A stretch of 64,000 bases of DNA from Hyphomicrobiales bacterium (GTDB taxonomy: Bacteria; Pseudomonadota; Alphaproteobacteria; Rhizobiales; NORP267): positions 3,761 through 67,760 of the forward strand of contig JAJFGZ010000006.1 of NCBI GenBank assembly GCA_021775855.1, in the 5' to 3' direction. The notes below the pieces were generated by a model. The model was not told the DNA's origin and searched no databases. It saw nothing but the letters and a program-made list of their open reading frames with translations. The position numbers were made by a program, and so were the translations under genes. Below, piece by piece: positions 826 through 29,470 of the stretch. How positions within the stretch are numbered: position 1 is the first letter of the stretch; every line of letters begins with the position of its first letter.

Positions 826-2127
826 ATGAATAACCCAACACGGAAAAGAGGCATGCATCGCCGTGATTTTTTGTCTAGCACGGCGGCGATTACGCTCATG
901 GCCACGACCAGTTGGCCCAAAGTCGTATTTGGTGCGGAGGAGACCGTCAAGATTGGCTTTCTTGCTCCTTTGACGGGTCCCGTATCGGCATGGGGTAAAC
1001 CCGGTTTGGATGGTTGCCAAATCTGGGCTGACTGGGTCAACCAGGCTGGCGGTATCATGGTTGGCGGTCAAAGCCACAAGGTGGAGTTTATCGGCTATGA
1101 CAACGAATATGATGCCGGTAAGGCCCGCACCGGTGCGGCCAAACTGATCAAGGAAGATGGCGTCAAGTTTATCATGATGCTTGGTGGTGACACCTGGCCG
1201 GGCGTTCAGCCATTGGCTGCAAATGAGAATATGTTGGTATCGACCCTGCTGCCGTCTGATTTGACCCCGGAAACGGACATGCTGATTGCGCCGTGTGAAG
1301 TCCATCCAATTTACAATGTGACCGGTGTACAGTGGCTGGCGGAAAATTATCCTGATAAAAAGCGGGCCGTGATTTGCGCGCAGGACGATGCGTTGGGTAA
1401 ACCTTCGGTCGCGACTTATCTCGCCGCTTTCGAAGCAGCGGGAATCGAGGTTGTTGACGAGCCGTTGTTTTTTGATCCGGCCACCACTGACTTTGCCCCG
1501 GTTATGACCCGCCTGTTGTCGAGCGACCCGGATATTCTGTGTCTCGATACCAGCTACGCCGATTATGTGCATCCTTTGTGCGAACAGGCATTTCAACAGG
1601 ACTTCAAGGGAACCATTATTTCCTGTACAGCGGATTTCTACCCAAAGATTATCGAAAAAACCTCCAAGGAATTCATGGAAGGATTCATCTTCCAGTTCCC
1701 GGATTTCGATGACCCGGCGCTCAATGCGGATCAGGTTAACTTTCCGCGGCCAAACGAATTCTACGCCGAATACGCGAACCGGTACGGAGAGGCCGAATGG
1801 GGTGCTGTATCGTGGGAATATGCTTCGATCATGGACCTTTGGGCCGATGCTGCCATCAAGGCAGATTCGTTTGAGCCTGCCGACGTTCTGACAGCCATGA
1901 AAGATGGCGGCACCGGCAAGCATGCCTTTGGCGACGCCGATTGGTGGGGTGAAGAATTATTTGGTATCAACAATGCACTCGTGGGTGACTGGCCAGTGGT
2001 CGTCATCGAAGATGGCAAAGCTGTAATCAAAGAATACAAATCCATCCCGGCTTGGTGGGCGCAGCACAAGGATCTCCTGATCAAGCACTTCACTGATCTT
2101 GGCCAGATGTGGAATCAGCGTGGTTGA
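826..2127 (+). CDS. ABC transporter substrate-binding protein, branched-chain amino acid (LivK-like) family, Tat-exported
   Basis: RRDFL twin-arginine signal; VKIGFLAPLTGPVSAWG start of the PBP1 fold; followed by LivH/M/G/F-like genes; SD ggagg. Confidence 0.9.
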   Translation: MNNPTRKRGMHRRDFLSSTAAITLMATTSWPKVVFGAEETVKIGFLAPLTGPVSAWGKPGLDGCQIWADWVNQAGGIMVGGQSHKVEFIGYDNEYDAGKARTGAAKLIKEDGVKFIMMLGGDTWPGVQPLAANENMLVSTLLPSDLTPETDMLIAPCEVHPIYNVTGVQWLAENYPDKKRAVICAQDDALGKPSVATYLAAFEAAGIEVVDEPLFFDPATTDFAPVMTRLLSSDPDILCLDTSYADYVHPLCEQAFQQDFKGTIISCTADFYPKIIEKTSKEFMEGFIFQFPDFDDPALNADQVNFPRPNEFYAEYANRYGEAEWGAVSWEYASIMDLWADAAIKADSFEPADVLTAMKDGGTGKHAFGDADWWGEELFGINNALVGDWPVVVIEDGKAVIKEYKSIPAWWAQHKDLLIKHFTDLGQMWNQRG

Positions 2128-2167
2128 TTGGGTAATGTCGGGCGAATAGCACGCTTACCTCTTCTAA

Positions 2168-2199
2168 AACCGTTCCCCTTGTCGTAAAGGGGAACGGTT
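2168..2199 (+). terminator. 13-bp intercistronic hairpin (mRNA stabiliser or partial terminator)
   Basis: aaccgttcccctt-gtcgta-aaggggaacggtt perfect stem, no U tract, between binding protein and permease. Confidence 0.55.
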
Positions 2200-2250
2200 C
2201 CTCCTAGCCGGTTTCCCTATATTTGACCTGACGTGCGGTGCTATTTGGCC

Positions 2251-3120
2251 ATGTCCGAACTCATATTGCAGACAATCGTCAATTCCATTTACGCCGCCAG
2301 CTACATGTCGCTGATTGCTGTTGGGTTGGTTTTGATTTTCGGTGTGATGGGCGTTATCAATTTTGCACATGGCGAGTTGTATATGGCCGGAGCCTATACA
2401 GTCGTTGCGTTATATTCCGGGTTAAACCTTCCCTTTTTTGTTGCCGTGGTCGTCGGGATGGTTTTCGTTGGCCTTCTCGGGCTGGTGATGGAATATGCTT
2501 TCTTTCGAGCGTTAAGAGATAATCCGCTCGGTGGCCTGATCGCATCGATCGGGTTTTTATTGATATTACAGACAGTTGCTGTCCTCGGGTTTGGTGTGCG
2601 TATGGCTCATATCAGGCCATCGACGCAGGAAAAAATAGAGTTATTCGATGGCGTGTTGCTCACCCATCAACGCCTCTATGTGATTGTCGCGGCCATACTG
2701 CTTTTGACAGCGTTATATATTTTTTTGCGCAAGACCAAATTTGGCTGGGCCATGCGCGCCTGCGCCCAGGATACGGAAGCTGCGGCGCTACAGGGTATTT
2801 CTCTCAACCAGATCACGCGGATTGCTATGTTTATCGGTGCCGGGCTAGCTGGCGTTGTAGGCGCCTTGACCGCACCGCTTGTCAGTCCGACGCCCTATAT
2901 GGGGCATTCGATCATCGTCACTGCTTTCATCATTATCGTTGTTGGAGGCATCGGCCAGCTTGAAGGCGCGGTTGTGGCGGCCATCCTCTATGCGTTTGTG
3001 CATACTTTCGTGACTACATTCTTTGATGGTGTGGTCGCGGATATGGTTGGATTGGTGTTGATGCTCCTTGTGTTGGTGGTCAAGCCAACCGGATTGTTTG
3101 GAGCCAACGATCGTGTCTGA
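2251..3120 (+). CDS. ABC permease, LivH-like
   Basis: SLIAVGLVLIFGVMGVINFAHGELYMAGAY and TKFGWAMRA motifs; ATG 2251 preferred. Confidence 0.9.
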   Translation: MSELILQTIVNSIYAASYMSLIAVGLVLIFGVMGVINFAHGELYMAGAYTVVALYSGLNLPFFVAVVVGMVFVGLLGLVMEYAFFRALRDNPLGGLIASIGFLLILQTVAVLGFGVRMAHIRPSTQEKIELFDGVLLTHQRLYVIVAAILLLTALYIFLRKTKFGWAMRACAQDTEAAALQGISLNQITRIAMFIGAGLAGVVGALTAPLVSPTPYMGHSIIVTAFIIIVVGGIGQLEGAVVAAILYAFVHTFVTTFFDGVVADMVGLVLMLLVLVVKPTGLFGANDRV

Positions 3121-4117
3121 CAGCAAGACTACTATAACCGTGTGGATCTTTGCGTTGACATTGCTTGCAGGATTGCTGGTTTTGCCGCAGCTGCTTTCCT
3201 ATTCGCAGCGAGAAATTGCTGTATTTTTGATCATCAACGTTTTGCTCGTGGTTTCATATCGCTTGATGACGCTGACCGGGGAATGGTCGCTTGGTCATGT
3301 GGTGATAATGGGTGTTGGTGCCTATGCCAGCGCGTTGTTCTCCAAACGGTTGGGTGTGCCTGTGCCGCTCTCCATGTTTCTCGGTGCGAGTACGGCCGGA
3401 TTGACGGCGGTGGTCCTCAGTTTCCCGCTATTCCGCATGAAGGGGTTCTATTTCCTGATCGGGTCCTTCGCAGCTGGAGAGGTAATACGGCTGATCTGGA
3501 AATATTTTACATTTCCGTTTGGCGGCGCAAAGGGTTTGAATCTGATTCCCTCGTTCCCTGACATTGGCTGGATTTCGTTCTTTGATCCCGTAAACTATTA
3601 TTACCTTTGCCTGATTGTCGTGTCGGTAAGCCTGTTCATCCTGTACCGCGTTGAGCGCTCTCGTTTTGGCCTAACATTCCATGCTTTGCATTGGCAGGAC
3701 AAATTGGCAGAATCGGTTGGCGTGAATACCTTCCGGTATCGCATGCTGGCCTTTACATTGGCGTCGTTCTTCGCGGGCTTGTCCGGCGCGCTTTACGCGC
3801 ATTATATTGGCACCGTTAATCCGACACGCTTTGACGTGGAGGAAATGGTCTATGTTTTAATCTGGGCGATTGTCGGCGGGACAGCAACTTTCTACGGTCC
3901 AATCGTTGGTGTAGTGGCGTTGACCATCGTCAACGACGTCCTCCTGCGCGCTCTGGGTTTTGATACGATCCGGCCCATGATTTATGGTGCGGTTCTTATA
4001 GCCTCGGTGTTGTTTATGCCGGATGGTCTCGAGAGCATTTTTCCAAAACTCAAACGCCTGATGATGGGCAGGAAGACTGAGCCGGCGACGAAATCTGAAG
4101 CGGGGGAAATCCCATGA
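3113..4117 (+). CDS. ABC permease, LivM-like
   Basis: GEWSLGHVVIMGVGAY, RMKGFYFLIGSFAAGE, SRFGLTFHAL motifs; GTG overlaps upstream stop. Confidence 0.9.
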   Translation: MSDSKTTITVWIFALTLLAGLLVLPQLLSYSQREIAVFLIINVLLVVSYRLMTLTGEWSLGHVVIMGVGAYASALFSKRLGVPVPLSMFLGASTAGLTAVVLSFPLFRMKGFYFLIGSFAAGEVIRLIWKYFTFPFGGAKGLNLIPSFPDIGWISFFDPVNYYYLCLIVVSVSLFILYRVERSRFGLTFHALHWQDKLAESVGVNTFRYRMLAFTLASFFAGLSGALYAHYIGTVNPTRFDVEEMVYVLIWAIVGGTATFYGPIVGVVALTIVNDVLLRALGFDTIRPMIYGAVLIASVLFMPDGLESIFPKLKRLMMGRKTEPATKSEAGEIP

Positions 4118-4884
4118 CCCAACCGATCCTGGAGGTCTGTGATCTGTCGCGAAATTTTGGCGGCTTGTTGGCAGTAAACCAGCTTAGCTTCTCGGTCATA
4201 CCGGGCACAATCCATGGGATCATCGGCCCCAATGGTGCCGGTAAAACCACCACATTCAATGTGATCAGCGGGTTCTATGCACCAAGCAGCGGCCATGTGA
4301 CCTATCTGGGCAAAGACATATCCGGCATACGGACGGACAGGCTGGCCGAAATTGGTCTGATCCGCACCTTCCAGGGCACAACGCTGTTCAACGAGTTTTC
4401 AGTGATCGACAATGTTCGGCTCGGCTGCCACGTATCCGCCAAGTCTGGATTTTTAAGCCGCCTTTTAGGTGCTGACCGCGAATCTGAAGCGGTGGCGACA
4501 AAAAAAGCCGAGGATTTGCTGGCCTTTTTTAATCTTAGCGATCTGCGTGACGAGGAGGCGTCGAACCTTCCCCACGGCCACCAGCGTGCGTTGGGCATGG
4601 CGGTGGCATTGGCGGCCGATCCTAAAATACTCCTGCTGGATGAACCGTTCACGGGCATGAACCCGGAAGAAACGGCGCGGATGATGACACTTACCCGGGA
4701 TATCCGTGACCGCGGTATTACGGTCATGCTGGTCGAGCATGACATGCAGGCAGTAATGGGTTTGTGCGATATGATTACGGTCATGAATTTTGGATCGCTG
4801 CTTACCGAAGGCACGCCGAAAGAAGTGCGTACAAATCCTGGTGTGATCGAAGCCTATCTCGGGAGTGCCCACCATGCTTCTTGA
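4114..4884 (+). CDS. ABC ATP-binding protein, LivG-like
   Basis: Walker A GPNGAGKTT, LPHGHQR signature, LLLDEP Walker B, C-terminal VIEAYLG. Confidence 0.92.
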   Translation: MTQPILEVCDLSRNFGGLLAVNQLSFSVIPGTIHGIIGPNGAGKTTTFNVISGFYAPSSGHVTYLGKDISGIRTDRLAEIGLIRTFQGTTLFNEFSVIDNVRLGCHVSAKSGFLSRLLGADRESEAVATKKAEDLLAFFNLSDLRDEEASNLPHGHQRALGMAVALAADPKILLLDEPFTGMNPEETARMMTLTRDIRDRGITVMLVEHDMQAVMGLCDMITVMNFGSLLTEGTPKEVRTNPGVIEAYLGSAHHAS

Positions 4885-5581
4885 GATCAAAGATATCCAT
4901 GTGCATTACGGAAAAATCGCCGCGCTAAAGGGTGTTTCCATGGAGGTGCCGGAAGACGGAATTGTGACCATCATCGGTGCCAATGGCGCGGGCAAGAGCA
5001 CCACATTGCGTGCCATTTCGGGTCTTAGCAAAATATCCGCTGGTGAAATCTGGTTCGATGGCGAGCGTATTGACGCGCTCCCGCCAGAGAAAATTGTAGC
5101 CTGCGGCATCGCCCAGGTGCCGGAAGGCCGGCGCGTCTTTCCTGATCTTAGCGTAGAGGAAAATTTGCGCACAGGGGCGTTCTTGCGGAATGACAGGGTT
5201 GAGATTGATCACAGCCTGGAGCAGGTTTTTACACGATTTCCACGTCTAAAAGAGCGACGCAGCCAATGGGCGAAGACCCTTTCCGGCGGTGAGCAGCAAA
5301 TGGTGGCCATTGGCCGGGCTTTGATGTCGAAACCGCGCCTACTATTGCTGGATGAGCCGTCCATGGGTCTTGCGCCGGTAATAATTCAGGAGATTGTTCG
5401 TATCCTCGAAGATATCGTCGCTGATGGTGTGCCGGTTGTTCTGGTCGAGCAAAATGCGGAATTGGCGCTTTCTCTTGCCCGATACGCGTATGTATTGGAA
5501 ACTGGCTCGGTATCATTGGCCGGGATTGCAGAGGATTTGCATGAAAATGATCACGTCAAGAAAGCCTATCTAGGTGGCTGA
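4874..5581 (+). CDS. ABC ATP-binding protein, LivF-like
   Basis: GANGAGKST, LSGGEQQM, LLLDEPSMGLAP, VKKAYLGG. Confidence 0.92.
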   Translation: MLLEIKDIHVHYGKIAALKGVSMEVPEDGIVTIIGANGAGKSTTLRAISGLSKISAGEIWFDGERIDALPPEKIVACGIAQVPEGRRVFPDLSVEENLRTGAFLRNDRVEIDHSLEQVFTRFPRLKERRSQWAKTLSGGEQQMVAIGRALMSKPRLLLLDEPSMGLAPVIIQEIVRILEDIVADGVPVVLVEQNAELALSLARYAYVLETGSVSLAGIAEDLHENDHVKKAYLGG

Positions 5582-6167
5582 ATCTTGGGAGCTTCAAGAT
5601 CTGATCCGTGCCGGCTGGTCTGAAGATGACCTGAAATGGGAAGGTATTTTAGAAGAGTTTGCTGCCTTTTGGTTGGAATCCAAAGATCAGGATGCCCAGG
5701 ATGCAGCTGGCCGAGCGCTTTATCTGGCACGCGAATTTTTTAAGCCAAATGATCCTCGTCTCGGCACATCGCTTGCCAATTTTGGCTTATGTCTTGCTCA
5801 AAATGACAAAGAATCCGGTGCCCGTCTACTGGATGAAGCCCGACAGGTCTGGGAGCAAACGGGCCCATGGATTGAAACGATGAAGGCCTCCCGTGTTGCC
5901 CGGTCGTCGATGTTCCATCTACGAATGGAGTTACGTCACCGGGATGCATTTCGAGAAAACTGGCAGACGAAATGGCTTCAAATGGCCGAGGATGCAACCG
6001 CGCGTATCGCAAGTGCGGTTTCCGATTTTCCTCACGATGCAACCGCCGCTTCTTCTGCCGCCGAGCGTTGGCAGCGTGAACGGCCTGCCATGTTAAACGA
6101 TACCCGCAAGCTAATGGCGGCAGTTTTGCTGCTGCTGCCGGGCGTGGGAGAGCCACCCGCTTCGTGA
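5574..6167 (+). CDS. Hypothetical protein with TPR-like helical motif
   Basis: 197 aa; GTG overlaps the livF-like stop; DPRLGTSLANFGLCL resembles a TPR_12-type repeat. Confidence 0.6.
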   Translation: MAESWELQDLIRAGWSEDDLKWEGILEEFAAFWLESKDQDAQDAAGRALYLAREFFKPNDPRLGTSLANFGLCLAQNDKESGARLLDEARQVWEQTGPWIETMKASRVARSSMFHLRMELRHRDAFRENWQTKWLQMAEDATARIASAVSDFPHDATAASSAAERWQRERPAMLNDTRKLMAAVLLLLPGVGEPPAS

Positions 6168-6190
6168 TCCGGCATCGACGATTGGGGGAC

Positions 6191-7060
6191 CTATACGTCC
6201 CGCATCAGGTCGCGCTGTACGTCGGTAATATGGAGCTTGATAAACTCGACCGCGCTTTCGATATCGCGCGTACGGATCGCTTTATAGAGCGATTGGTGTC
6301 TCTTTTTATATTCTCTGATACGGTTTGGTGAGAGGGTTTTTTGGCGATTTTCCACGCCTGAAGAATCGCGCCGTACGATGATTACCATTTTGTAGAGCGA
6401 GCTCAGCAATGGATTATGGACGCCGGCCGCAAGGCACAGGAACAGCTCTTCGTCGCAGCGAGAGAATGCCGTCGCATCTGTGCTGATCATCTCCATGCGC
6501 TCGATGATTTTGCCCATTTTTGAGATATCTTTGTTGGACATATTGATAACAGCAAGTCTGGCTATTTCCGGCTCAAGTATGGACCGGACGACATTGAGTT
6601 CCAAAGGACTGGTCATCTGCGCCGTTTCGGCTATATCGATTGTTAGGCCGTCATCCGCTTCTATGATGGTTTCAAGATTATTCGCGACAGGGAATTCTCC
6701 GGCATTTTGCGCTGGTTCGGGTTGATTGTGGAAGCTTATAAATGTGCCACTACCAGGTCGCCGCGCAATAAGGCCAGAATCTTCCAGAATATCCAATCCT
6801 CTCCGTAATGTTGTTCGCGATACCGCAAACTCTTCGGCCAAATGACGTTCGGCCGGTAATCGCTCGCCATCGGTAAATTCCCCGATCAGGATGCGGGCGC
6901 CAAGTTTAAGTGCCAAAGATTTTGCAACGCCTCCCGAGTAATCCTGTAGCCCACCTGCATCCAGAGATTTCTGGACCGTCTTCAGCAATGTCTCGTTCAA
7001 GGCGAAGTCCTCCTTGCCTGCCAACAGGCGTGGGGAATGATTGGTGGACCAATTCGCCAC
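6191..7060 (-). CDS. GntR-family (FadR subfamily) transcriptional regulator; true start may lie downstream of 7060
   Basis: wHTH RLPAERHLAEEFAVSRTTLRRGLDILEDSGLIARRPGSGTF plus C-terminal FCD-type domain (LNVVRSILEPEIARLA...GVHNPLL). Confidence 0.9.
   Translation of the reverse strand: MANWSTNHSPRLLAGKEDFALNETLLKTVQKSLDAGGLQDYSGGVAKSLALKLGARILIGEFTDGERLPAERHLAEEFAVSRTTLRRGLDILEDSGLIARRPGSGTFISFHNQPEPAQNAGEFPVANNLETIIEADDGLTIDIAETAQMTSPLELNVVRSILEPEIARLAVINMSNKDISKMGKIIERMEMISTDATAFSRCDEELFLCLAAGVHNPLLSSLYKMVIIVRRDSSGVENRQKTLSPNRIREYKKRHQSLYKAIRTRDIESAVEFIKLHITDVQRDLMRDV
7040..7053. promoter_or_regulatory. FadR-subfamily-type palindromic operator
   Basis: ATTGGT-GG-ACCAAT perfect 6-bp inverted repeat at the 5' end of the regulator; weaker copy TTTaGT-AT-ACCAAA at 7235-7248. 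Confidence 0.55.
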
Positions 7061-7268
7061 CTGTTGTATCCGTCCCTATGTAGCTCTTGATTTGTAAAAA
7101 GCAAAATAGGCCTTGGTCTTATTATTGACAAAACCAATCTCAAAAAAAACGATAGGACCAATAAATCAATGATATTTTCTAAAAACATTATAAAAAACAT
7201 ACAAGTAAAAGTTTTTGGATTTTTATTCACTCATTTTAGTATACCAAATTTGTGAGAAAATAATATAA

Positions 7269-7313
7269 AATCAATGGATTGATTAGATTGGTATGTGTTG
7301 GTAGCATTTTGGT
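7269..7313. promoter_or_regulatory. IHF-consensus site plus phased TTGGT array upstream of TMADH
   Basis: AATCAATGGATTG at 7269-7281; TTGGT at 7288, 7298, 7309. Confidence 0.45.
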
Positions 7314-7460
7314 TGGAGGATCGGAACCATTTCGTTACGCGGCTGCGTGAAATCAGTGTTGACCTGAATGTTGGTTTTCGATCGTGCTGGCTGTTTCCCG
7401 GTACCACCGAAAGAAACGGAATTCCCGGACAGACCGGCTAAGATTTGAGGGAGGAATCAA

Positions 7461-9647: not shown

Positions 9648-9672
9648 TCCCGCATAGCGGTTCCATTATTTT

Positions 9673-9700
9673 CCGGTGTTCCAGAAAGCTGGAACACCGG
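9673..9700 (+). terminator. 12-bp intercistronic hairpin after tmd
   Basis: ccggtgttccag-aaag-ctggaacaccgg perfect stem, no U tract. Confidence 0.55.
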
Positions 9701-9782
9701 CGCTTGCGCGTAATTTTGTGCTTTTCATTATCTACAACGCGGCGTTGAAGACCTTGAAAGCCTTTGTGGACGGAGACGTCGG

Positions 9783-12700
9783 GTGGAAACGCGTGAATTA
9801 TTCTGGTCCCTGAAAACGCCCTCGGTGGTGGTTTTCTATGCTTTTGGGCTTGCTACGATTGCATTATTTATTTGGGGTTGCTGGAGGCATTACGCGAAAT
9901 ATCGACGCGGCACGGCCCCGGTCACTGCCATTGATCTGATCGCTGGGGTCAGACGAATGGTTGCCGATTTGATAACCCATCGCACGCTTGTGCGCCGCGA
10001 TAAGTATGCTGGCTATGCCCATGCCGGGATTTTCTTCGGCTTTGTCATCGCTGCGCTCGGCACCGCCACCATCACACTTGAATATGATATTCTCGAGCCG
10101 CTGTTCGGGATCACGTTCTGGCATGGGGATTTCTACCTCTTGTTCAGCTTGCTCCTCGACCTTGGTCATTTGGCGCTATTTCTCGGGCTCCTGATGATGA
10201 TTGTCCGCCGCTTGTTTTTCAGTCTGGACAAGCTTGACTATCGACGCAGCTACAGAGGGGATAGTGAACTTCGAACGTCAGCAAAAACATGGCGTATTGA
10301 AGACTGGATATTCTTATCCACTCTGCTGCTGATCGAGATAACCGGGTTTGTTCAGGAGGCTGTCCGCCTGCTTATGGATAAACCTGAATGGGCCTCATGG
10401 TCTCCGGTTGGATTGTTGCTGGCGAACGGGTTTGCAGTCCTTGGCATGTCTGATGCCACGGCTGCCGCGATCCGCGGTGCTAATTGGTGGATCCACGGCG
10501 TGCTGGCGCTCGCATTTACTGCGGCCATTCCCTGGTACAAGGCCAAGCACATCATCGCCGTGGTCGGTTCGCTGGCGATGCGTGCTGAAAAACCTCTTGC
10601 CCGTTTGACGCGAGAAGGTGAAGCCCGGCAAAGTAGCGGGATTGCCGATGTCTCGCAGTTTTCCTGGAAAGACATGTTGAATTTCGACGCCTGCACAAAG
10701 TGCGGGCGGTGTCATGAAGCGTGTCCTGCGCAGATTGCCGGATTTCCCTTGAGCCCGCGCGACTTTATTCTCGATCTGCGCACCCACAATGACAAAATGC
10801 AGGGCCGTCCGGATGAAGCGGTTCAGCTTATTGGCGATATCATCGCCCCTGAGACTTTGTGGGCGTGCCGTATGTGTGGGGCGTGTCAGGAAATTTGTCC
10901 TGTTGGAATCGAGCATCCGGCGATCATCGTACAAATGCGCCGCCAATTGGTGGAGCGTGGCGACATGGACCCGCTACTGCAAGGAACCCTCGATACCATT
11001 GCAAGCACCGGTAACAGTTTTGGCGAAAGCGCGCGCAAACGCAGCGCCTGGACGCGCGAACTGGAATTCAAGGTCAAAGATATTCGCGAAGTGGCCGCAG
11101 AAAACCTCTGGTTCGTTGGAGACTATGCGTCTTTCGACCCGCGCAACCAGCAGGTTAGTCGCGCTTTTGCCTCCCTGATGAAACACACCAAAACCGATTT
11201 TGCACTGCTGCATGAAGGCGAACGCAATGCCGGCAATGATGTTCGACGGGTTGGTGAAGAGGGGCTTTTTGAAACCCTGGTCGAGAGCAATTTACAGGCA
11301 ATGACCGGCGTCAAACAATTTTCAAAAATAATTACAACCGACCCCCACAGCTACAATACGATTAAAAACGAATATCCGGAATTCGGTGATGTTGCGCCTA
11401 TCGAACATTATACTTCGATCCTTGATGACCTCCTCAAATCCGGTCGGTTGAAGGTCACCAAGCCGCTCAGCAAGAAAGTGACGTTTCACGATCCGTGCCA
11501 TCTTGGCCGGTTGAATGGTGGCTATGATGCGCCACGCCACGTACTGGAAGCTATCGGCTGTGAAATTGTCGAGATGCCGCGCAACCGCGACAATTCGTTT
11601 TGCTGCGGTGCCGGGGGAGGGCGTATCTGGATTCCCGATCCGCCTGGAAAAGAAAAGCCATCCGAAAATCGTATGCGCGAGGCAGCAGGTCTCGGTGGCA
11701 TCGACATTTTTGTGACCTGCTGTCCAAAGGACCTGACCATGTTCGAAGACGCGCGTAAAACCAGCGGCCACGAAGCCGATTTTCTAGTCCGGGATATCGC
11801 CGAACTGGTGGCCGAAGCTATTGAGTTGAACGAGATTTCGCTGCAGGACATGCCATCGCTTGCCGAGCGTATTACAGACGCCGTGGCGACCCGCGTCGCA
11901 GATGTAGTTGGCGCCCGTCTGGAGAACGTACTTTCTTCCAAACTAGATGGGTTGGCCAGTATACCAGCGCCTGCCAAACCTGCCGAAATTCCTTCGGAAC
12001 CTAAGGAACCATCATCCACCACTCCAGAAACTGTGCAGGCGCGTATCACAGCGCCTGAAGTCGATGAGGATGTGCAGACTTCCACCCCAGAAGCGGAATT
12101 GCCGGCGTTGACAGCGATGGATTGGGACAGCCTGGCCCCTGTGCGTCTGGTCCCGTATGAGGGGTATGAGGCACCTGAGAAATCAACTTTGCGTATTTTG
12201 GTGACGGTGAAACACACAGCAAAACTCGGCGATGAATATGAATTTACAGCTGATACACGCGATGTGGCCGGGGAGTATCTTGAATACGATCTAAATGAAT
12301 GGGACGACGCGGCGTTGGAACAGGCGTTGCTTCTTGTAGAGGCCCATGGTGACGGCGAAGTGGTTGCTGTTTCGGTTGGTCCCGAAGAAGTTGAAAAGTC
12401 CCTCCGCAAGGTTCTCGCCAAGGGCGCCGATCGGGCGGTGCGTATCTGGGACGATAGGCTTCGGATCGCCGATCCGGTGACCATTGCCCGAGCAATTGCT
12501 GGCGTTGCCGCTGCTGAGCAACCTGACCTGATTTTAACGGGGACACAGTCTTCAGACCATGCTCACGGCTCTACTGGCACGGCGCTGGCACGTATTCTCG
12601 ATCTTCCCCATAGCTCGGTTATCGTCGAAGTCGAGCCGCAAGACGAGGGCGTCATCAACGTGACCCGCGAACTTGAAGGCGGAACCCGTCACGTGCTGCA

Positions 12701-12956
12701 GATGTCGATGCCTGCGGTCCTCGCTATCCAGACCGGAACCAACACACCGCGCTATGCGACGATGCGGATGATCAAACAAGCCAAGAAGAAGCCTCTTGAC
12801 GTGCTCGATGGTGCGCCAATTGTCGATGGATCCGGGGGGTACCGGGTACGACGCATGTACACCCCGATTCAGGAAAAGGCACAAATGCTCGAAGGGTCGG
12901 CGGAAGAGGTTGCGGCAAAAGTCGCCGAGCTTATCCGCGACATTAGGGGAGAATAA
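9783..12956 (+). CDS. Membrane heme-b/Fe-S oxidoreductase (FadF/EMO-like: TM domain, 2x4Fe-4S, CCG domains) fused to electron transfer flavoprotein beta subunit
   Basis: TM helices with His in YAHAGIFFGF, WWIHG, KAKHI; CTKCGRCHEACP and CRMCGACQEICP; FHDPCHLGR...FCCGAGGG; P/E/T-rich linker; from ~12189 ETF-beta (RILVTVKH, YDLNEWDD, LAKGADRAVRIWD, GTQSSD, RELEGG, PRYA). Confidence 0.88.
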   Translation: METRELFWSLKTPSVVVFYAFGLATIALFIWGCWRHYAKYRRGTAPVTAIDLIAGVRRMVADLITHRTLVRRDKYAGYAHAGIFFGFVIAALGTATITLEYDILEPLFGITFWHGDFYLLFSLLLDLGHLALFLGLLMMIVRRLFFSLDKLDYRRSYRGDSELRTSAKTWRIEDWIFLSTLLLIEITGFVQEAVRLLMDKPEWASWSPVGLLLANGFAVLGMSDATAAAIRGANWWIHGVLALAFTAAIPWYKAKHIIAVVGSLAMRAEKPLARLTREGEARQSSGIADVSQFSWKDMLNFDACTKCGRCHEACPAQIAGFPLSPRDFILDLRTHNDKMQGRPDEAVQLIGDIIAPETLWACRMCGACQEICPVGIEHPAIIVQMRRQLVERGDMDPLLQGTLDTIASTGNSFGESARKRSAWTRELEFKVKDIREVAAENLWFVGDYASFDPRNQQVSRAFASLMKHTKTDFALLHEGERNAGNDVRRVGEEGLFETLVESNLQAMTGVKQFSKIITTDPHSYNTIKNEYPEFGDVAPIEHYTSILDDLLKSGRLKVTKPLSKKVTFHDPCHLGRLNGGYDAPRHVLEAIGCEIVEMPRNRDNSFCCGAGGGRIWIPDPPGKEKPSENRMREAAGLGGIDIFVTCCPKDLTMFEDARKTSGHEADFLVRDIAELVAEAIELNEISLQDMPSLAERITDAVATRVADVVGARLENVLSSKLDGLASIPAPAKPAEIPSEPKEPSSTTPETVQARITAPEVDEDVQTSTPEAELPALTAMDWDSLAPVRLVPYEGYEAPEKSTLRILVTVKHTAKLGDEYEFTADTRDVAGEYLEYDLNEWDDAALEQALLLVEAHGDGEVVAVSVGPEEVEKSLRKVLAKGADRAVRIWDDRLRIADPVTIARAIAGVAAAEQPDLILTGTQSSDHAHGSTGTALARILDLPHSSVIVEVEPQDEGVINVTRELEGGTRHVLQMSMPAVLAIQTGTNTPRYATMRMIKQAKKKPLDVLDGAPIVDGSGGYRVRRMYTPIQEKAQMLEGSAEEVAAKVAELIRDIRGE

Positions 12957-12958
12957 TC

Positions 12959-13924
12959 ATGGCAGGTATCCTTGTCGTTGCGGAGCAACTGGATGGCGCA
13001 TTACGCGATATTTCGTCGGAATTGATTGGTGCGGCTAATTCCATCAAAGGTGAAATTGATGGACCACTTCAGGTGTTGATCGTTGGTCAGAATGTCGAAG
13101 ACCTCGCCAACAAGATCAATCTGGATGGTATCGATGATATTTTTACGCTGGAAATGCCCGACAATCATTTCGATCCGCTGGTATATGAAGAAGCCATCTG
13201 CAGCCTGGGTGCAGATCTGAAACCGGGCATCATTCTCATCGGCCACACCGTCAGTGGAATGGGTTACGGCGCGGCTGTTGCGGCGCGGCTTGGGTCCGGT
13301 TTTGCCAGCGACGTGATTGCTCTTGCGATGGACGGGGACGATCTCGTCGCCACCCGCAGTGCCTATGGCAACAAGGTGGAGATGGAGTTGGGTTTCCCCG
13401 GCAAGGGCGTTGTCGTGCTCACACTACGCGGCGCCACGTTTGCACCGCCGGAGGGTGATGGGAACGCAAAAATTTCACCGGCCGAAATCGATCTGACAAT
13501 GCTGGAAGGCGTTTCGACTCATGTGGAATTTCAGGAGGCCCCGCCGTCCGACATTGATATAACCAAGGCCGATTTCATCCTCTCGGTGGGACGCGGTATT
13601 CAGGATCAGGATAACCTGCCGCGCTTTGAAGCACTTGCCGATAAACTCGGCGCTACCTTTGGCTGCTCGCGGCCAATTGTCGATGCGGGATGGTTGCCAA
13701 AACCCCACCAGGTTGGCCAGTCGGGCAAAGTCGCTTCAAATTGCCAACTTTATTTTGCCCTCGGTATTTCAGGTGCAGTCCAACACCTGTTCGGAATGAA
13801 GCATATCGATACCATTATCGCGGTCAATACCGACCCCGATGCGCCCATTTTCAACGTGGCAACTTACGGCACCACCATCGATCTGTTTGAACTGACTGAT
13901 GCGTTGGAGCGCCACTTCAACTGA
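12959..13924 (+). CDS. etfA: Electron transfer flavoprotein alpha subunit
   Basis: ILVVAEQ start; SVGRG, GCSRPIVDAGW, QVGQSGK, GISGAVQHLFGM, IAVNTDPDAPIF FAD-binding motifs. Confidence 0.95.
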   Translation: MAGILVVAEQLDGALRDISSELIGAANSIKGEIDGPLQVLIVGQNVEDLANKINLDGIDDIFTLEMPDNHFDPLVYEEAICSLGADLKPGIILIGHTVSGMGYGAAVAARLGSGFASDVIALAMDGDDLVATRSAYGNKVEMELGFPGKGVVVLTLRGATFAPPEGDGNAKISPAEIDLTMLEGVSTHVEFQEAPPSDIDITKADFILSVGRGIQDQDNLPRFEALADKLGATFGCSRPIVDAGWLPKPHQVGQSGKVASNCQLYFALGISGAVQHLFGMKHIDTIIAVNTDPDAPIFNVATYGTTIDLFELTDALERHFN

Positions 13925-13960
13925 CAATTCAACAACCACCAATAGATAAGGGAGACTAAA

Positions 13961-15061
13961 ATGAACGAAGGTACCCGACACTCCGTACTCGCTGATCGCC
14001 ACCGCGCGCTTGGTTCTGATCTTGGTGACTGGAACGGAATGGGCGTCGCGTGGGACTATGCCAGCGACCCATGCGATGAGCACGATGCGGTGCGCACCGC
14101 CGCCGGCCTGTTCGATGTTTCTGGCCTGAAAAAGGTATTCGTACAGGGTCCCGATGCTGGTGCCGTTGTGGATCATGTTATCACGCGAAATATGAAAGTT
14201 ATCACCCCCGGACGCTCGGCCTATGGTCCGAACCTGACCGAACAGGGAACTATTTGCGACGATGCGATTGTCTTTAACCTGGGTGGTGGCAAATGGATGG
14301 TCGTGCATGGATCGGGAAGTTGCATGGAGATGCTGCAAGAATCGGCAGCCGGCAAAAACGTCGATATCGAATTCGACGACGATCTCCACGACATTTCATT
14401 GCAGGGACCGAAATCTACCGAATTCCTCAATGCGCATACTCCATTCGATCTGGCCGGCCTGAAATATTTTCATCAGGAAGAGACCGAATTGTTCGGTCAT
14501 CCGGTGATTATTTCTCGCACCGGGTATTCAGGTGAACGGGGGTACGAGATATTCGCCGGGGCGGATCGTGTAGGCGATATCTGGGATCAGATTATTGGCC
14601 AGGGTAAGGCCGAAGGCATCATGCCATGTTCTTTCACCTGCCTCGACAAAATCCGTGTCGAAGCGGCCCTGTTATTTTACCCATACGACATGACCGAGGC
14701 GAACAGCCCATGGGAAGTTGGTCTTGGCTGGGCAATCACGACCAAAGGTGACGATTTTCGTGGTCGTGCAGCGGTCATGGATCTCAAGGGCAAGGAAAAG
14801 ATCAAGGTCGTTGGTATTAGCGCCGATCATGACGGTATTCTTGCTGGCGAAGAAAAACTGAAGCTGGATGGCAAGGAGGTTGGCGTTGTCAATTCTCCAG
14901 CCTATTCTCATCGCATGAAAAAATCTCTTGCTCTTGCACATGTTACGCCGGACGCAGCCGCACCCGGCACTCAGCTGCGTGTAGAAGGGGATATTTCCTG
15001 CGATGCGATAGTTGAAGCAACGCCTTTCTATGACCCGGATAAAACCCGGACCCATGGATAA
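13961..15061 (+). CDS. Stand-alone aminomethyltransferase (GcvT/T-protein family, folate-binding)
   Basis: GLFDVSGL, DDAIV, ISLQGPKS, SRTGYSGERGYEI, DKIRVEAALLFY, SLALAHV, TPFYDP; no gcvH/gcvP in the window. Confidence 0.88.
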   Translation: MNEGTRHSVLADRHRALGSDLGDWNGMGVAWDYASDPCDEHDAVRTAAGLFDVSGLKKVFVQGPDAGAVVDHVITRNMKVITPGRSAYGPNLTEQGTICDDAIVFNLGGGKWMVVHGSGSCMEMLQESAAGKNVDIEFDDDLHDISLQGPKSTEFLNAHTPFDLAGLKYFHQEETELFGHPVIISRTGYSGERGYEIFAGADRVGDIWDQIIGQGKAEGIMPCSFTCLDKIRVEAALLFYPYDMTEANSPWEVGLGWAITTKGDDFRGRAAVMDLKGKEKIKVVGISADHDGILAGEEKLKLDGKEVGVVNSPAYSHRMKKSLALAHVTPDAAAPGTQLRVEGDISCDAIVEATPFYDPDKTRTHG

Positions 15062-15117
15062 AGGAAACACGTTCTCCGGTTGCAGATCAGGATGAATTCG
15101 ATAGCCGAGCTGGCCAA

Positions 15118-16500
15118 ATGAACGCATTGGACACGGCCAGGGCCAGGTATCGGGCCAACAGTGTCAGATGGGGTTATATCTGGGCGCTGTGGTGCGCTGT
15201 TTTGTGGGGCATCTGGTATATTCCAGGCACCGCGCTGTGGAGCGAGGCGCCCTACAGCACTATGAGTTTCGATACTACGGGCGAGTTATTGCTCAGCGCT
15301 GCCGTGATAACCGCGTTTAGCGCCGTCAGCGTGCTGATTTTCCTGTTTATATGGCTGGCGGTGCTGGAGAAATTTGGCGAATTCCGGCGAACCGTGAAAC
15401 GATTTTCTTCGATCTCCAAATGGTATTTTTTGGCTGCCATTTTTGGCGGTCCTTGTGCTCTTTTCGGGGCTTACCTTGCTATCGGATTTGTAGGGCCGAT
15501 CTTTGCGGCCGTCGCCTCGCTGCTTTACCCTATTGTCGGGGCTACGCTTGCCCGATTGTGGTACAATGAGATCATTACCCAGCGTGCTGCCATCGGCATC
15601 GGCTTGATCGTTACCAGCGGCATTGCGATCTTTTTGCCCGGGTTATTCTCTGAATCCGCCGGTGCCGGAGATACAGCGTGGATCGGCTATCTCGGCGGTG
15701 CTGTGTCGGCAATTGGGTGGGGGTTTGAGGGCGCAATTGTCGGTCGCGCACTCGATGTATCCGACGCCGATGTTGGCATTACCATTCGTTTTACCGCCGA
15801 GGTCCTGTTCTGGGTTTTTCTGATACTCCCCGCCGCGGTAATATTTTTTGACGCCCCTGTTATCCCTGTGGCGTTGGCAACGTTTAATTTTTGGGCCATC
15901 ATCTGGGTCTTGCTCGCAGGCCTCAGTTATGGGTTTTCCTATGTTGCCTGGTATAAATCGTTCCCGCTGATCGGCGTTGGGCGCGGGCAGGCAATCGCTG
16001 CGCTGCATACTGTTTTTGCAGTTGTCTTCCTCGCCGTTTTTGCTTTTCAATTCCCGAGCTGGAATTTTCTTGTCGGACTGGCGCTCGCCGTGGCGGGCAC
16101 TTTTTTAATGGTCAGTGAAGATAGCAAGGTAGTCGAAGTGGTGCGACAGCCTCCTGCAAAAGAATTGACGGCCCGCACTCGCAGAAACAAGACTGCGTGT
16201 GTGTCGAAGGGTGGCCTGCACATGAAAGGTTACATATTGAGATTGCTGATGGAAGCCGGAGAGTCAGGGGTCTGGGATTACGAGATCATGACTTCGGTAT
16301 TTGCCGAATATGGTTACAGCGGAAGCTATTGGAAGGGCGAAGTTCGCGCTACCCTGACAGATCTTTATTCAGGTGCGCTGATCGAGGAAATAGAAGACGA
16401 TCTCGATGATGGCGGGTCATTTGGAATTGGTAAGATCCTGATAAAATTCAGGATAAGCGCATTTGGCACCCAGCGCATTGCCGAAACCGGCCTGATATGA
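15118..16500 (+). CDS. DMT-superfamily permease resembling methanogen MttP, with a fused ~90-aa soluble C-terminal domain
   Basis: About 10 hydrophobic segments; WALWCAVLWGIWYIPGT, GWGFEGAI, WYKSFPLIGVGRGQ match my recollection of MttP; hydrophilic domain from in-frame ATG 16222. Confidence 0.75.
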   Translation: MNALDTARARYRANSVRWGYIWALWCAVLWGIWYIPGTALWSEAPYSTMSFDTTGELLLSAAVITAFSAVSVLIFLFIWLAVLEKFGEFRRTVKRFSSISKWYFLAAIFGGPCALFGAYLAIGFVGPIFAAVASLLYPIVGATLARLWYNEIITQRAAIGIGLIVTSGIAIFLPGLFSESAGAGDTAWIGYLGGAVSAIGWGFEGAIVGRALDVSDADVGITIRFTAEVLFWVFLILPAAVIFFDAPVIPVALATFNFWAIIWVLLAGLSYGFSYVAWYKSFPLIGVGRGQAIAALHTVFAVVFLAVFAFQFPSWNFLVGLALAVAGTFLMVSEDSKVVEVVRQPPAKELTARTRRNKTACVSKGGLHMKGYILRLLMEAGESGVWDYEIMTSVFAEYGYSGSYWKGEVRATLTDLYSGALIEEIEDDLDDGGSFGIGKILIKFRISAFGTQRIAETGLI

Positions 16501-16518
16501 AGATGAAGGGGAGCAGAC

Positions 16519-16629
16519 ATGTCTGATTTCTGGGGATTTGAATATGCGCACCTATGGGCCATCGGCCTGATAATTGTCCTTGCCGGAATTTGCCTCTATC
16601 TGGCCCGATCTTGGGGGGCAAAACTATAG
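16519..16629 (+). CDS. Small single-TM protein (36 aa), below the ORF-track cutoff
   Basis: SD aaggggag; MSDFWGFEYAHLWAIGLIIVLAGICLYLARSWGAKL; 18 nt after the permease stop. Confidence 0.5.
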   Translation: MSDFWGFEYAHLWAIGLIIVLAGICLYLARSWGAKL

Positions 16630-16738: not shown

Positions 16739-17544
16739 GGGACTGTCACGTTAAGCGATTGCGGTCGAGTGCAATTGGGCTGTTGGCCAAGGTTAGGCAG
16801 CCGCTGTCAAATTCCATCCACACATTCATTGCTTCTACGCGAAACTGACGCATGATCTGTCTGGAAATCAGGTGACGTCGAATATTGAAAGTGTTGTAGA
16901 TGGCGGCGTGAGTGCAGAGAAATAGTTATGCTGATCTGGACGACTTGAACCGTTTCATTCGTCGTTCTCGTTGTCGAATGGACAAATGGAAATTCTCCGT
17001 CCGATTGTTCTATCTGTCACCAAAATCATGAAGGCTGGACAGGCCTGACCCTCTCAAAGCAGCACCGCAAGACAGTAGTTTATCGGTCACGGTTGCGTCC
17101 GGAACTCAACCCTGGGCTTTCAATAATTTACGCATCAGCTTGAGGGCGGCCTGCTTGTTTCTCCTGGATTGAACCAGAATACCCAGTACTTCACCTCCAC
17201 TATCGACAGCCCGCCAGAGATATTTTCGATTACCATTGATCGAGACGAACTTGTCGTCCTGATGCCATCGGTCATCTGGGCGAGGGCGCTTTCGCCCCAA
17301 TTTATGTGCACAAATTTGGCCGAACTTGAGAGCCCAACGCCGAGCGGTTTCATATGTAACGTCGACACCGCGCTCAGCCATCAAATCCTCGACATCCCGG
17401 AAGCTGAGCGGGAACCGGAAATACAGCCAAACGGCATACCGGATGATAGAAGTGGGAAAACGGTGTCGAGTGTAGGAGATATTTTGCATTCGACGATGTA
17501 ACTGATCTGTCGAACACCAGTCACCAAGTTACCGCGGCAGTATC
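16739..17544 (-). mobile_element. Degenerate IS6-family element (transposase pseudogene)
   Basis: Ends GGGACTGTCACGTTAA / GATACTGCCGCGGTAA; ORF 17106-17489 RHRFP...AVWLYFRFPLSFRDVEDLMAERG...YLWRAVD continues past in-frame stops into NNRTENFHLSIRQRERRM. Confidence 0.85.
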
Positions 17545-22195: not shown

Positions 22196-22473
22196 ACCGG
22201 TCGTTGGCTCAACAATCAAGCCGAAAACTCACATCAACCGTTTCGACGAAGAGAACGAGTGATGGCGAGATTGCGAAATACTAAAACACTTCAGAAATTC
22301 ACTTCGATCCATGCCTCAATCCACAATCACTTCAACCATAACCCTCGTCTAAATCGCCGTGATCGCTTCAAGGAAAACCGTTCACAGGCTCTCACCGAAT
22401 GGCGGCAGCTTATCGCCTGATAGAAGTCGAGATGCGGCTTGGCTCGCCTTAATATTTTTCCTCTGACAATGCC
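22196..22473 (+). mobile_element. IS6-family right-end fragment
   Basis: WLNNQAENSHQPFRRRERVM...EWRQLIA*; IR at 22458-22473; related to but not identical with 28760-29027. Confidence 0.8.
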
Positions 22474-29027: not shown

Positions 29028-29029
29028 AT

Positions 29030-29257
29030 CTGTTGGCGTCCGATAGTACAAGCACGATCTCTGATCTTGCCAGAGACGCCAACAAACCACGCTCCTGGTT
29101 TAGCGCCCAATTGTCACTTGCCTTTCTGGAGCCCGACATCGTCACGACCATCCTACAGGGCCGGCAACCACCGGGCATGTCACTCAAGCCGTTACTCAAG
29201 ATCGCCGCTAGGCATCACGACTGGTCAGAGCAGAGGCTAGCGTTCGAACGCGGCTAA
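29030..29257 (+). pseudogene. C-terminal fragment of a large serine recombinase, cut by IS6
   Basis: LSLAFLEPDIVTTILQGRQPPGMSL...DWSEQR resembles the C-terminal motif of alphaproteobacterial island recombinases; lies ~200 bp from the tRNA 3' end. Confidence 0.65.
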
Positions 29258-29470
29258 GATATTCTCCGAACCGGAAGCCAAATTCTCCATCCCGAAAAAA
29301 TGATGCGTATGCCGCGAAATCGCGGTCTGAGACTTTTGGGCTTATTCCACTGGATCGCTCAGAAATTGGCCAATTTGGCATACGCTCTGGCCGAAGCTAC
29401 TCTGCCAAGTCCCGGGAATATGGGCGCTATTCCGCTGGCTCAGAGACCGCACATATGCAGGGCAGGTGGG

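Follow-up and report, generated by a model that had tools for sequence, protein, structure and literature searches.

We have analyzed a locus at positions 826–16629 of a 64-kb stretch of DNA (the window) from a Hyphomicrobiales bacterium, combining a map of open reading frames (ORFs) with Pfam and NCBIfam scans. At its center lie the gene for a putative trimethylamine (TMA) dehydrogenase (TMADH, gene tmd) and a gene in which an EtfD-like membrane oxidoreductase is fused to the beta subunit of an electron-transfer flavoprotein (ETF). A preliminary description had listed a Liv-type ATP-binding cassette (ABC) importer, a TMADH, the fusion, ETF-alpha, a GcvT-type protein and a permease. The ORF map and the family scans bear out this gene set, and each gene was found where it had been placed. 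The co-orientation and short spacing reported between 7461 and 16629 hold equally, with all genes on the + strand and successive gaps of 135, 2, 36, 56 and 18 nt. The end coordinate, 16629, is the stop codon of an ORF encoding a conserved membrane peptide of 36 amino acids (aa). This block and the divergent regulator gene before it have the following features.

6191–7060, − strand: GntR/FCD-family regulator, divergent from tmd (GntR and FCD domains)
7061–7460, no strand: gntR–tmd intergenic promoter region, A+T-rich, with ATTGGTATA-like sites at 7240 and 7287
7461–9647, + strand: predicted trimethylamine dehydrogenase, 728 aa (963 bits to PDB 1djn/2tmd)
9783–12956, + strand: whole EtfD-like::EtfB fusion, 1057 aa (membrane domain, two [4Fe-4S], CCG domains, complete EtfB)
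9783–11834, + strand: EtfD-like part, fusion residues 1–684 (E = 6e-64 to M. smegmatis EtfD 9ojn)
11835–12188, + strand: linker, fusion residues 685–802 (amphipathic helix, Pro/Ala/Glu-rich segment, MDWD motif)
12189–12956, + strand: EtfB domain, fusion residues 803–1057 (216 bits to W3A1 ETF beta 1o94_C)
12959–13924, + strand: EtfA of W3A1 type, 321 aa (Pfam ETF and ETF_alpha; 300 bits to 1o94_D)
13961–15061, + strand: stand-alone GcvT-like folate-binding protein, 366 aa (GCV_T and GCV_T_C)
15118–16221, + strand: permease core of the drug/metabolite transporter (DMT)/EamA type plus short linker (EamA); the permease gene as a whole is 15118–16500, 460 aa
16222–16500, + strand: 92-aa soluble domain, fused in frame to the permease (48–51% identity to separate ORFs in other phyla)
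16519–16629, + strand: 36-aa single-helix membrane peptide, MSDFWGF...LYLARSWGAKL (homologous peptides behind the same permease module elsewhere)

The dehydrogenase, its ETF and the membrane fusion protein

In a search of the PDB the tmd product matched the Methylophilus methylotrophus W3A1 enzyme with 963 bits (E = 7e-289), aligned over residues 3–717, and histamine dehydrogenases with 511–534 bits. Its Pfam architecture, with Oxidored_FMN at residues 10–341 together with Pyr_redox_2 and OYE-like_second_a-b, is the three-domain layout of TMADH, in which an OYE-like FMN barrel precedes the ADP-binding and pyridine-nucleotide-disulfide-like domains. Cys30, the position of the covalent 6-S-cysteinyl-FMN link, and Cys345, Cys348, Cys351 and Cys364, those of the [4Fe-4S] cluster, are present here and in all aligned orthologs. 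The Tyr169/His172/Asp267 group is kept, and so is a TMA-type pocket comprising the aromatic bowl of Tyr60, Trp264 and Trp355, plus Ser74 and Trp105. These functional residues are near-invariant across 75 aligned TMADH sequences, the exceptions being three at Ser74 and one at Asp267. The corresponding pocket residues of dimethylamine (DMA) dehydrogenase (DMADH) are Gln60, Thr74 and Phe105. Because the pocket in the window is Tyr/Ser/Trp at these positions, the protein is probably a TMA enzyme and not a DMA enzyme, and its identity as DMADH was rejected. A demethylase of DgcA/StcD type was rejected on the TMADH score and the pocket. Bit score and pocket residues thus both point to a TMA-type TMADH, as had been proposed. 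The genome, which is 94% complete, contains no second close TMADH paralog, the next matches having at most 35% identity. W3A1 positions V344 and Y442 (residues 347 and 445 in the window protein), which we take to be ETF-facing surface residues, are Glu and Arg in all the alphaproteobacterial TMADHs; in those of Beta- and Gammaproteobacteria they are Val or Thr (344) and Tyr (442).

The ETF encoded behind tmd resembles that of W3A1 in both subunits. Residues 803–1056 of the fusion align with residues 1–263 of 1o94_C at 216 bits, as against 103 bits for the Paracoccus ETF, and EtfA gives 300 bits to W3A1 EtfA (1o94_D) versus 113–125 bits to housekeeping ETFs. These scores agree with the earlier view of a dehydrogenase linked to an ETF of its own. 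The ETF recognition loop (concept from PMC4148887) has the sequence PRYATMRMI where the proteins are fused; where they are not, and in W3A1, it is PRYASLRGI.

The N-terminal part of the fusion is homologous to M. smegmatis EtfD (PDB 9ojn, E = 6e-64). Mycobacterial EtfD has been shown experimentally to link ETF to the menaquinone pool, and the structure paper describes it as a wire on which electrons leave ETF for a linear [3Fe-4S] cluster (D1), pass a non-cubane [4Fe-4S] cluster (D2) and two cubane clusters, and reach menaquinone by way of haem b (PMC13083937). Two CX2CX2CX3C motifs of the window protein (C304/307/310/314 and C362/365/368/372) align with D3/D4 of EtfD and are invariant in 52 orthologs. 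The D2 ligands are conserved as H522, C572, C607, C608 and C646/C647, with a last motif of CCP and not CPxC; exceptions to ligand invariance among the 52 occur at Cys646, kept in 38, and at Cys647, kept in 51. At the positions of the D1 cysteines stand Asp, Ala, Asp and Ser. Given the absence of these cysteines, and since D1 is also absent from DgcB and FadF (PMC13083937), we place the N-terminal part in the D1-less DgcB/FadF branch of the EtfD-type proteins. DUF3483 of DgcB was not detected in the fusion by the Pfam scan. Five long N-terminal helices are predicted, both by transmembrane prediction and in an AlphaFold2 model, and this membrane domain has no Pfam match at E ≤ 0.01. His80 and His238 within it are invariant in 52 orthologs and are positioned like the haem ligands His78 and His241 of EtfD.

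Between the two parts lies a linker in which a conserved amphipathic helix is followed by a Pro/Ala/Glu-rich stretch and then by MDWD ahead of EtfB; in 25 fused orthologs the whole linker has 63–135 aa. The AlphaFold2 model, used for its pattern of order and disorder only, has pLDDT values (predicted local distance difference test) of 28–45 over residues 684–787, with a well-formed EtfB fold. In the 2026 EtfD structure the docking of ETF is not visible, and a disordered C-terminal tail is predicted to bind ETF (PMC13083937). The frame of the fusion over 11400–12700 was reproduced without differences in independently assembled contigs of four biofilm-metagenome runs, at 20–34x depth.

The preliminary description held that TMA oxidation is wired to the quinone pool. 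This is the best reading of the sequence, because EtfB is fused to a homolog of EtfD, and mycobacterial EtfD has been shown to link ETF with the quinone pool (PMC13083937). Elsewhere in the genome are a housekeeping etfB–etfA pair (contig C49, 32% identity) and a canonical ETF:quinone oxidoreductase (ETF-QO, contig C34), and there is no further EtfD paralog. With these housekeeping components separate and no other EtfD present, the locus would hold a private electron outlet. To our knowledge the oxidant of the W3A1-type TMADH ETF has never been assigned, and we found no assignment in the literature searched. The conserved fusion of EtfB to an EtfD-type protein provides strong genomic evidence for its identity.

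Related loci and their gene order

A scan of species-representative genomes gave 80 TMADH loci, with which the window proteins were compared by tblastn together with frame analysis. The core tmd–etfD–etfB–etfA is conserved in about 50 of the 80, spanning Alpha-, Beta- and Gammaproteobacteria; the GcvT-like gene and the permease accompany them in subsets. Three layouts can be distinguished. In layout A the EtfD::EtfB fusion is open, as it is in 26 loci besides the window, all alphaproteobacterial and all from other assemblies, two of them isolates. The taxa are Rhodobacteraceae (including Roseovarius conchicola), Hyphomicrobium (including GJ21), Rhodospirillales and Kiloniellales. From tmd the genes run through EtfD::EtfB and etfA, then in most cases to the GcvT-like gene and, among the closest relatives, to the permease; the genes of the solute-binding protein (SBP), the ABC system and gntR lie upstream. 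Layout B is found in other alphaproteobacterial metagenome-assembled genomes (MAGs), where the GcvT-like gene directly follows tmd, ABC genes are nearby and no ETF module lies within 10 kb. Layout C, with separate etfD and etfB, belongs to Beta- and Gammaproteobacteria (Paraburkholderia, Methylophaga, Methylotenera, Methylobacillus and Zoogloea). In Methylophaga sulfidovorans, for instance, tmd and etfD are followed by an LRV/HEAT-repeat gene, and this in turn by etfB, etfA, a lumazine-synthase-like gene and dmmDABC.

The LRV/HEAT-repeat gene between etfD and etfB (e.g. locus L080:5027–6460) is present in 19 of 21 unfused loci and in none of the 26 fused loci, and it is absent from this genome. 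The two exceptions, having neither LRV gene nor fusion, are Zoogloea loci (L074:7541–10747 and L071:12194–15395). In the MAG of L074, etfD with a Pro/Ala-rich tail and etfB are in one frame with a single stop between them, which may be an intermediate state or a candidate for read-through. The closest relative of the window locus, a long-read MAG (L009:12268–15493), has the fusion gene as two overlapping frames, probably through a sequencing frameshift. The gene between etfA and dmmD in Methylophaga sulfidovorans is a DMRL_synthase gene (L080:8291–8809), and ORFs of similar size occupy its position in L078 (Methylophaga) and L088 (Methylobacillus).

The preliminary description had not recognized the gene combination from any characterized pathway. 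The comparison shows it to be recognizable: tmd–etfD–etfBA is widespread, including classic TMADH methylotrophs in which it continues into dmmDABC, and the block mirrors the published dgcAB–etfAB module (PMC12093977). The locus is an alphaproteobacterial variant of a conserved TMADH system and no new pathway. The new features are narrower than had been claimed, being the fusion, a tmd-linked clade of GcvT-like proteins and the transport parts. What is specific to the window is the EtfD::EtfB fusion, exclusive with the LRV gene, the tmd-linked GcvT clade, the linked ABC system and a three-part permease module. The literature searched contained no description of a tmd–etfD cluster, the fusion, the tmd-linked GcvT clade, the three-part permease module or a bacterial ABC importer for TMA, and a paper on methylotrophy in Paracoccus aminophilus makes no mention of TMADH.

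Folate protein, transport, regulation and the wider genome

The GcvT-like protein falls under the GcvT equivalog cut-offs of NCBIfam (235.6 bits against 300, and 196 against 236), and gives 165 bits to the folate domain of trimethylamine N-oxide (TMAO) demethylase, about equal to its match with true T proteins. A canonical gcvT lies with the P-protein genes on contig C69, with 25% identity to the protein of the locus. A glycine-cleavage T protein was rejected on the sub-cut-off scores and the presence of this real gcvT. In a maximum-likelihood tree, 35 tmd-linked alphaproteobacterial GcvT-like proteins group together with moderate support (92/89), while proteins from dmmDABC contexts and from Hyphomicrobium form a well-supported clade (100/100); the clade of DmmD context is supported at 100/99. 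Both clades are distant from canonical GcvT. Members of the tmd-linked clade, which is sister to DmmD, are always adjacent to tmd; the window protein lies outside the DmmD clade and has no dmmABC alongside. DmmD is a stand-alone GcvT-domain protein encoded beside a formaldehyde-releasing demethylase, and is needed in vivo for the use of TMA and TMAO (PMC5520151). With DmmD as a direct precedent and a clade that always adjoins tmd, it is reasonable to suppose that the GcvT-like protein captures the C1 unit, in keeping with the suggestion that a lone tetrahydrofolate (THF)-type protein diverts this unit to folate.

The permease at the end of the block has no NCBIfam match, and has homologs of 53–62% identity in distant phyla. 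The Pseudomonas homolog overlaps the end of an FMO-like gene of the type of the TMA monooxygenase Tmm, and that of an actinobacterial MAG sits between pyl/MtbB genes and MttC–MttB. In both of these contexts alike the permease is followed by a 92–97-aa ORF and a 36–38-aa peptide. In the window, as in about 30 close relatives, permease and 92-aa unit form one fused protein; the separate ORFs of 92–97 aa, found behind the permease in L096 (9074–9364), L098 (9108–9401), L100 (9112–9390) and L101, have 48–51% identity to this unit. The domain has no Pfam match at E ≤ 0.01, and a structure prediction from a five-sequence alignment (pLDDT 51) was too poor for a fold search. The 36-aa peptide (MSDFWGF...LYxAR..KL) is conserved behind the permease module in Rhodobacteraceae, Pseudomonas, Dehalobacterium and the Actinobacteria MAG, and is likely an unannotated third subunit of that module. 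Since no solute but TMA is shared by the TMADH, Tmm and MttB contexts, we propose that the DMT module is a TMA permease. The label MttP-like, used in the preliminary description, is supported in this sense by gene context, through the homologs on the Tmm and MttB/MttC sides, and not by comparison with the archaeal MttP sequence.

The features that lie outside the tmd block are these.

1–256, + strand: 3′ end of a paralogous Liv-type SBP gene, 443 aa, start at contig C46:2685 (57.6% identity to the SBP at 826–2127, tblastn)
257–825, no strand: promoter region of the ABC-importer operon, with four ATTGGTATA-like sites at 263, 569, 579 and 670
826–2127, + strand: periplasmic SBP of the Liv/HAAT family, 433 aa, twin-arginine signal (Peripla_BP_6, E = 2e-48)
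2233–3120, + strand: ABC permease, LivH-type (BPD_transp_2, E = 1e-37)
3068–4117, + strand: ABC permease, LivM-type, start codon uncertain (BPD_transp_2, E = 1e-38)
4114–4884, + strand: ABC ATPase, LivG-type (ABC_tran and BCA_ABC_TP_C)
4865–5581, + strand: ABC ATPase, LivF-type (ABC_tran, E = 3e-31)
5574–6167, + strand: 197-aa ORF, no family in Pfam or NCBIfam (TPR_12 under its cut-off)
16800–17489, − strand: decayed IS6-family transposase with three in-frame stops (DDE_Tnp_IS240), at the downstream edge of the island

The Liv/HAAT importer is complete, with an SBP, two BPD_transp_2 permeases and two ATPases. The SBP has an RRDFL twin-arginine signal and nine Trp that are invariant in 46 tmd-linked orthologs. 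It is linked to tmd in most alphaproteobacterial and some gammaproteobacterial loci, and it matches no NCBIfam equivalog. The simplest guess for its ligand is TMA. The second Liv-type SBP gene lies directly upstream (contig C46:2685–4016), and two specificities are possible. The 197-aa ORF is weakly conserved, an ORF of 31–50% identity being present at the same position in related loci.

The ATTGGTATA-like motif has nine matches in the window, six of which are inside the two promoter regions. A motif common to both promoters fits joint control by the divergent GntR/FCD protein, which probably regulates the two of them. Its gene adjoins tmd in most alphaproteobacterial loci, and the GntR-family protein TmoR represses tmm in Ruegeria (PMC13390433). 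FNR-box matches in either promoter were no better than chance, in agreement with a caveat already made that no such box is present. Scans for promoter and terminator consensus sequences likewise gave matches at chance level. A weak terminator-like hairpin (9706–9721) lies inside the 135-nt gap behind tmd (9648–9782) and could lower downstream expression relative to TMADH. No RNA run was found to contain the locus.

Decayed remnants of IS6-family elements in opposite orientation, at contig C46:1823–2354 and window ~16800–17489, flank an island of ~19 kb that contains the TMADH genes, and the contigs of the individual runs end at about both remnants. Further IS6-family remnants are present at ~22195–22376 and 28491–29380 of the window. 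Downstream of the island the window contains housekeeping genes only. None of five other genomes from the small family of this organism has the fusion, an EtfD-like homolog or TMADH, and TMADH of at least 54% identity was found in about 8 of 201 genomes sampled from the order. The island was likely acquired horizontally.

The preliminary description had noted the lack of a DMA-oxidizing enzyme in the window, and this extends to the whole genome. It contains no FMO-like gene (Tmm), no Tdm over cut-off and no DmmC-type gene. The DmmC search has a positive control, since it found the gene in 7 of 16 other tmd genomes, usually in or beside the tmd locus. The DmmC-type gene is also absent from all six marine Rhodobacteraceae carriers, and an FMO-like gene from 7 of 10 alphaproteobacterial carriers checked. 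The locus cannot therefore be called self-contained, as it had been, and oxidation probably stops at DMA. With no Dmm, DMADH, Tmm or Tdm in the genome, DMA is probably a dead-end product that is released or slowly turned over, and a stop at this point matches the ‘Dmm bottleneck’ of marine bacteria (PMC5520151).

GmaS is present over its cut-off, with mgsABC-like genes beside it (read by eye). This stretch of contig C42 (135960–148278) holds GmaS, an Amt-type transporter, the mgsABC-like genes, a second glutamine synthetase (GS)-like gene and a GntR paralog that is 30% identical to the regulator of the locus; it resembles a monomethylamine (MMA) island and is unlinked to the TMADH island. A 911-aa oxidoreductase of molybdopterin type is encoded nearby (C42:129796–132531). 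The genome has a respiratory NarG over cut-off and lacks NapA. Low-oxygen TMA use with nitrate respiration is established physiology for Hyphomicrobium. The use of methylamines at low oxygen that had been suggested for this locus is plausible here, because the route would need no O2 as a substrate and nitrate respiration is available.

The proposed route, its alternatives and known systems

Taken together, the data make it probable that the block is the alphaproteobacterial form of a conserved TMADH respiratory operon, carried on the ~19-kb island between decayed IS6 elements. The scheme of its operation given here is inferred throughout, for every activity as well as for the solutes transported, the function of the folate protein, the control of the genes and what becomes of DMA. 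TMA would enter via the three-part DMT permease module, the Tat-exported (twin-arginine) Liv-type ABC system, or both. Soluble TMADH would convert it to DMA and formaldehyde, via 6-S-cysteinyl-FMN and then the [4Fe-4S] cluster, and pass electrons one at a time to the FAD of the dedicated W3A1-type ETF. The beta subunit of this ETF would be covalently tied, via a disordered Pro/Ala-rich arm of 60–135 residues, to the EtfD-type membrane protein. There the electrons would move from a single non-cubane cluster over two [4Fe-4S] clusters and haem b into the quinone pool, and the chain would thus be held at the membrane, apart from the housekeeping ETF and ETF-QO. The GcvT-like protein would trap formaldehyde as 5,10-methylene-THF, the role ascribed to DmmD in DMA monooxygenase, and the GntR/FCD regulator would probably control both promoters. 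The yield for each TMA would be two electrons and one C1 unit, and nitrate respiration through NarG could take the electrons.

Other readings of the locus must be weighed against this respiratory operon. The dehydrogenase could act on another amine (DMA, histamine or some other N-methyl compound imported by the Liv-type system), in which case the locus would not be a TMA system. Members of the TMADH family also include DMADH, histamine dehydrogenase and DgcA-like demethylases, the usual ligands of Liv-type SBPs are amino acids, amides or urea, and the absence of a DMA enzyme would matter less if TMA were not the substrate. Yet the score to true TMADH is nearly double that to histamine dehydrogenase (963 vs 534 bits, the latter matching at 511–534), and Y60, S74, W105, W264 and W355 are of the TMA type in nearly all 75 orthologs, three differing at S74. 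Moreover, the clusters of Methylophaga, Methylobacillus, Paraburkholderia and Zoogloea run into or adjoin dmm genes, fitting a path from TMA through DMA to MMA, and the permease family co-occurs with two other TMA enzymes. A different amine substrate is accordingly quite improbable. It is also conceivable that the ABC system alone imports TMA and that the DMT module exports DMA, or handles some other solute. Many DMT/EamA proteins are exporters, and an outlet would be useful in a genome that cannot oxidize DMA. The homologs of 53–62% identity, however, adjoin Tmm in Pseudomonas, an enzyme that yields TMAO rather than DMA, and MttB/MttC/MtbB in an actinobacterial MAG, where DMA would be consumed; TMA is the solute that all three contexts share. 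We give the export of DMA some weight, but consider it unlikely.

The electron-transfer genes raise two further alternatives. The EtfD-like::EtfB fusion and EtfA might constitute a general-purpose ETF system that merely lies beside tmd, with TMADH using another acceptor. ETF systems can serve many dehydrogenases, and eleven alphaproteobacterial MAG loci (L037–L047), plus a few others, carry tmd and the GcvT-like gene with no ETF module within 10 kb. But both ETF parts are closest to the TMADH-specific ETF of W3A1, in about 50 loci of three classes the module comes straight after tmd, a housekeeping ETF and an ETF-QO are encoded elsewhere in the genome, and the five other genomes of this family all lack the fusion. 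A general-purpose system is very improbable. The fusion itself could have arisen by a lost stop codon or a frameshift in sequencing or assembly, given that the parts are in overlapping frames in the closest locus, from a long-read MAG, and are in frame with one stop between them in one Zoogloea MAG. Such an artefact is scarcely credible, since 26 independent loci, two of them from isolates, have the frame open, the sequence is identical in the contigs of four separate runs, and the character of the linker is conserved together with its flanking motifs. We rejected it on the independent contigs and the 26 open loci.

Several observations nevertheless weigh against the respiratory operon as drawn. 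The SBP has only weak relatives in the PDB, and the closest solved SBPs bind amino acids or urea. The membrane domain of the fusion was not aligned to EtfD by HMMER, so that its haem ligands are assigned by position and invariance only, and the AlphaFold2 model of the whole fusion is weak, with a mean pLDDT of 58. The semiquinone couple of the W3A1 ETF is unusually positive, at about +200 mV, and simple downhill transfer to ubiquinone is not obvious. The missing DMA step leaves the pathway incomplete, which is odd beside an intact GmaS/Mgs route. Lastly, E344 and R442 on TMADH and the Met in the ETF loop may reflect co-adaptation of a docking surface, but the surface residues, the loop and the alternation of fusion and LRV gene all track phylogeny (alpha vs beta/gamma). 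They are not independent evidence, and the contrasts in surface residues and loop are therefore only suggestive.

TMADH with its ETF is a textbook model of protein-to-protein electron transfer. We can tentatively go one step further, though the odds are somewhat against it, and suggest that the Pro/Ala-rich arm in Alphaproteobacteria and the LRV protein in Beta- and Gammaproteobacteria serve as alternative means of keeping the dedicated ETF close to its membrane oxidase. The ETF would then never leave the membrane, its FAD domain swinging between TMADH and the non-cubane cluster in a fixed TMA:quinone oxidoreductase supercomplex, with E344/R442 and the loop Met as co-adapted contacts. If so, the fusion would offer structural work a naturally tethered, stable complex for solving the docking of ETF on enzymes of the EtfD type, a question that the 2026 structure of EtfD did not answer. 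Combined with the folate protein linked to tmd and with a three-part permease for TMA that TMADH, Tmm and MttB systems have in common, this arrangement would also define a route from TMA to DMA, in marine or biofilm settings, in which DMA is released. More generally, the locus would be a marker of bacteria that gain one C1 unit and two electrons from TMA with no O2 as a substrate. Marine Rhodobacteraceae are among its carriers, and of these most lack Tmm and all lack Dmm. The carriers probably release DMA, a point of relevance to methylamine fluxes where biofilms and sediments are low in oxygen. For the steps of C1 capture and TMA transport, the candidates are the GcvT clade linked to tmd, the Liv-type binding protein and the three-part DMT module.

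The closest known system is the TMADH–ETF pair of W3A1 (PDB 2TMD, 1DJN and 1O94–1O97). The dehydrogenase is orthologous, all cofactor and substrate residues are the same, and the dedicated ETF is of the same type. Here, however, EtfB is fused to a membrane protein, V344/Y442 are replaced by E/R, and the loop is PRYATMRMI rather than PRYASLRGI. The TMADH operons of Beta- and Gammaproteobacteria differ in their LRV-repeat gene, absent here. Mycobacterial EtfD (Rv0338c; 9OJN; PMC13083937) shares with the fusion two [4Fe-4S] clusters, the CCG domains and a disordered C-terminal region, and its membrane haem-b domain has a putative counterpart here, placed by position. In the window protein the D1 cysteines are missing, and a whole EtfB domain stands at the end of the disordered tail; ubiquinone is the probable quinone, and the partner would be an amine dehydrogenase instead of acyl-CoA dehydrogenases. 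The dgcAB–etfAB (fixAB) module of Pseudomonas aeruginosa and Vibrio natriegens (PMC12093977) likewise unites a TMADH/OYE-family Fe-S flavoenzyme, an EtfD-type membrane protein and a private EtfAB in one operon. Its substrate is dimethylglycine, its DgcB carries DUF3483, and it has no fusion, GcvT-like gene or transport genes. DmmD of DmmDABC (PMC5520151) is, like the GcvT-like protein, a stand-alone GcvT-domain protein encoded with a formaldehyde-releasing N-demethylase, but the window protein belongs to a separate tmd-linked clade in a genome that lacks dmmABC. The likeness of the permease is to MttP, by gene context, as a DMT-type permease encoded beside a TMA-consuming enzyme. MttP is the putative TMA permease of the mtt operons of methanogens, whereas the permease of the window has a fused 92-aa domain, a 36-aa peptide following it and a dehydrogenase as its partner.

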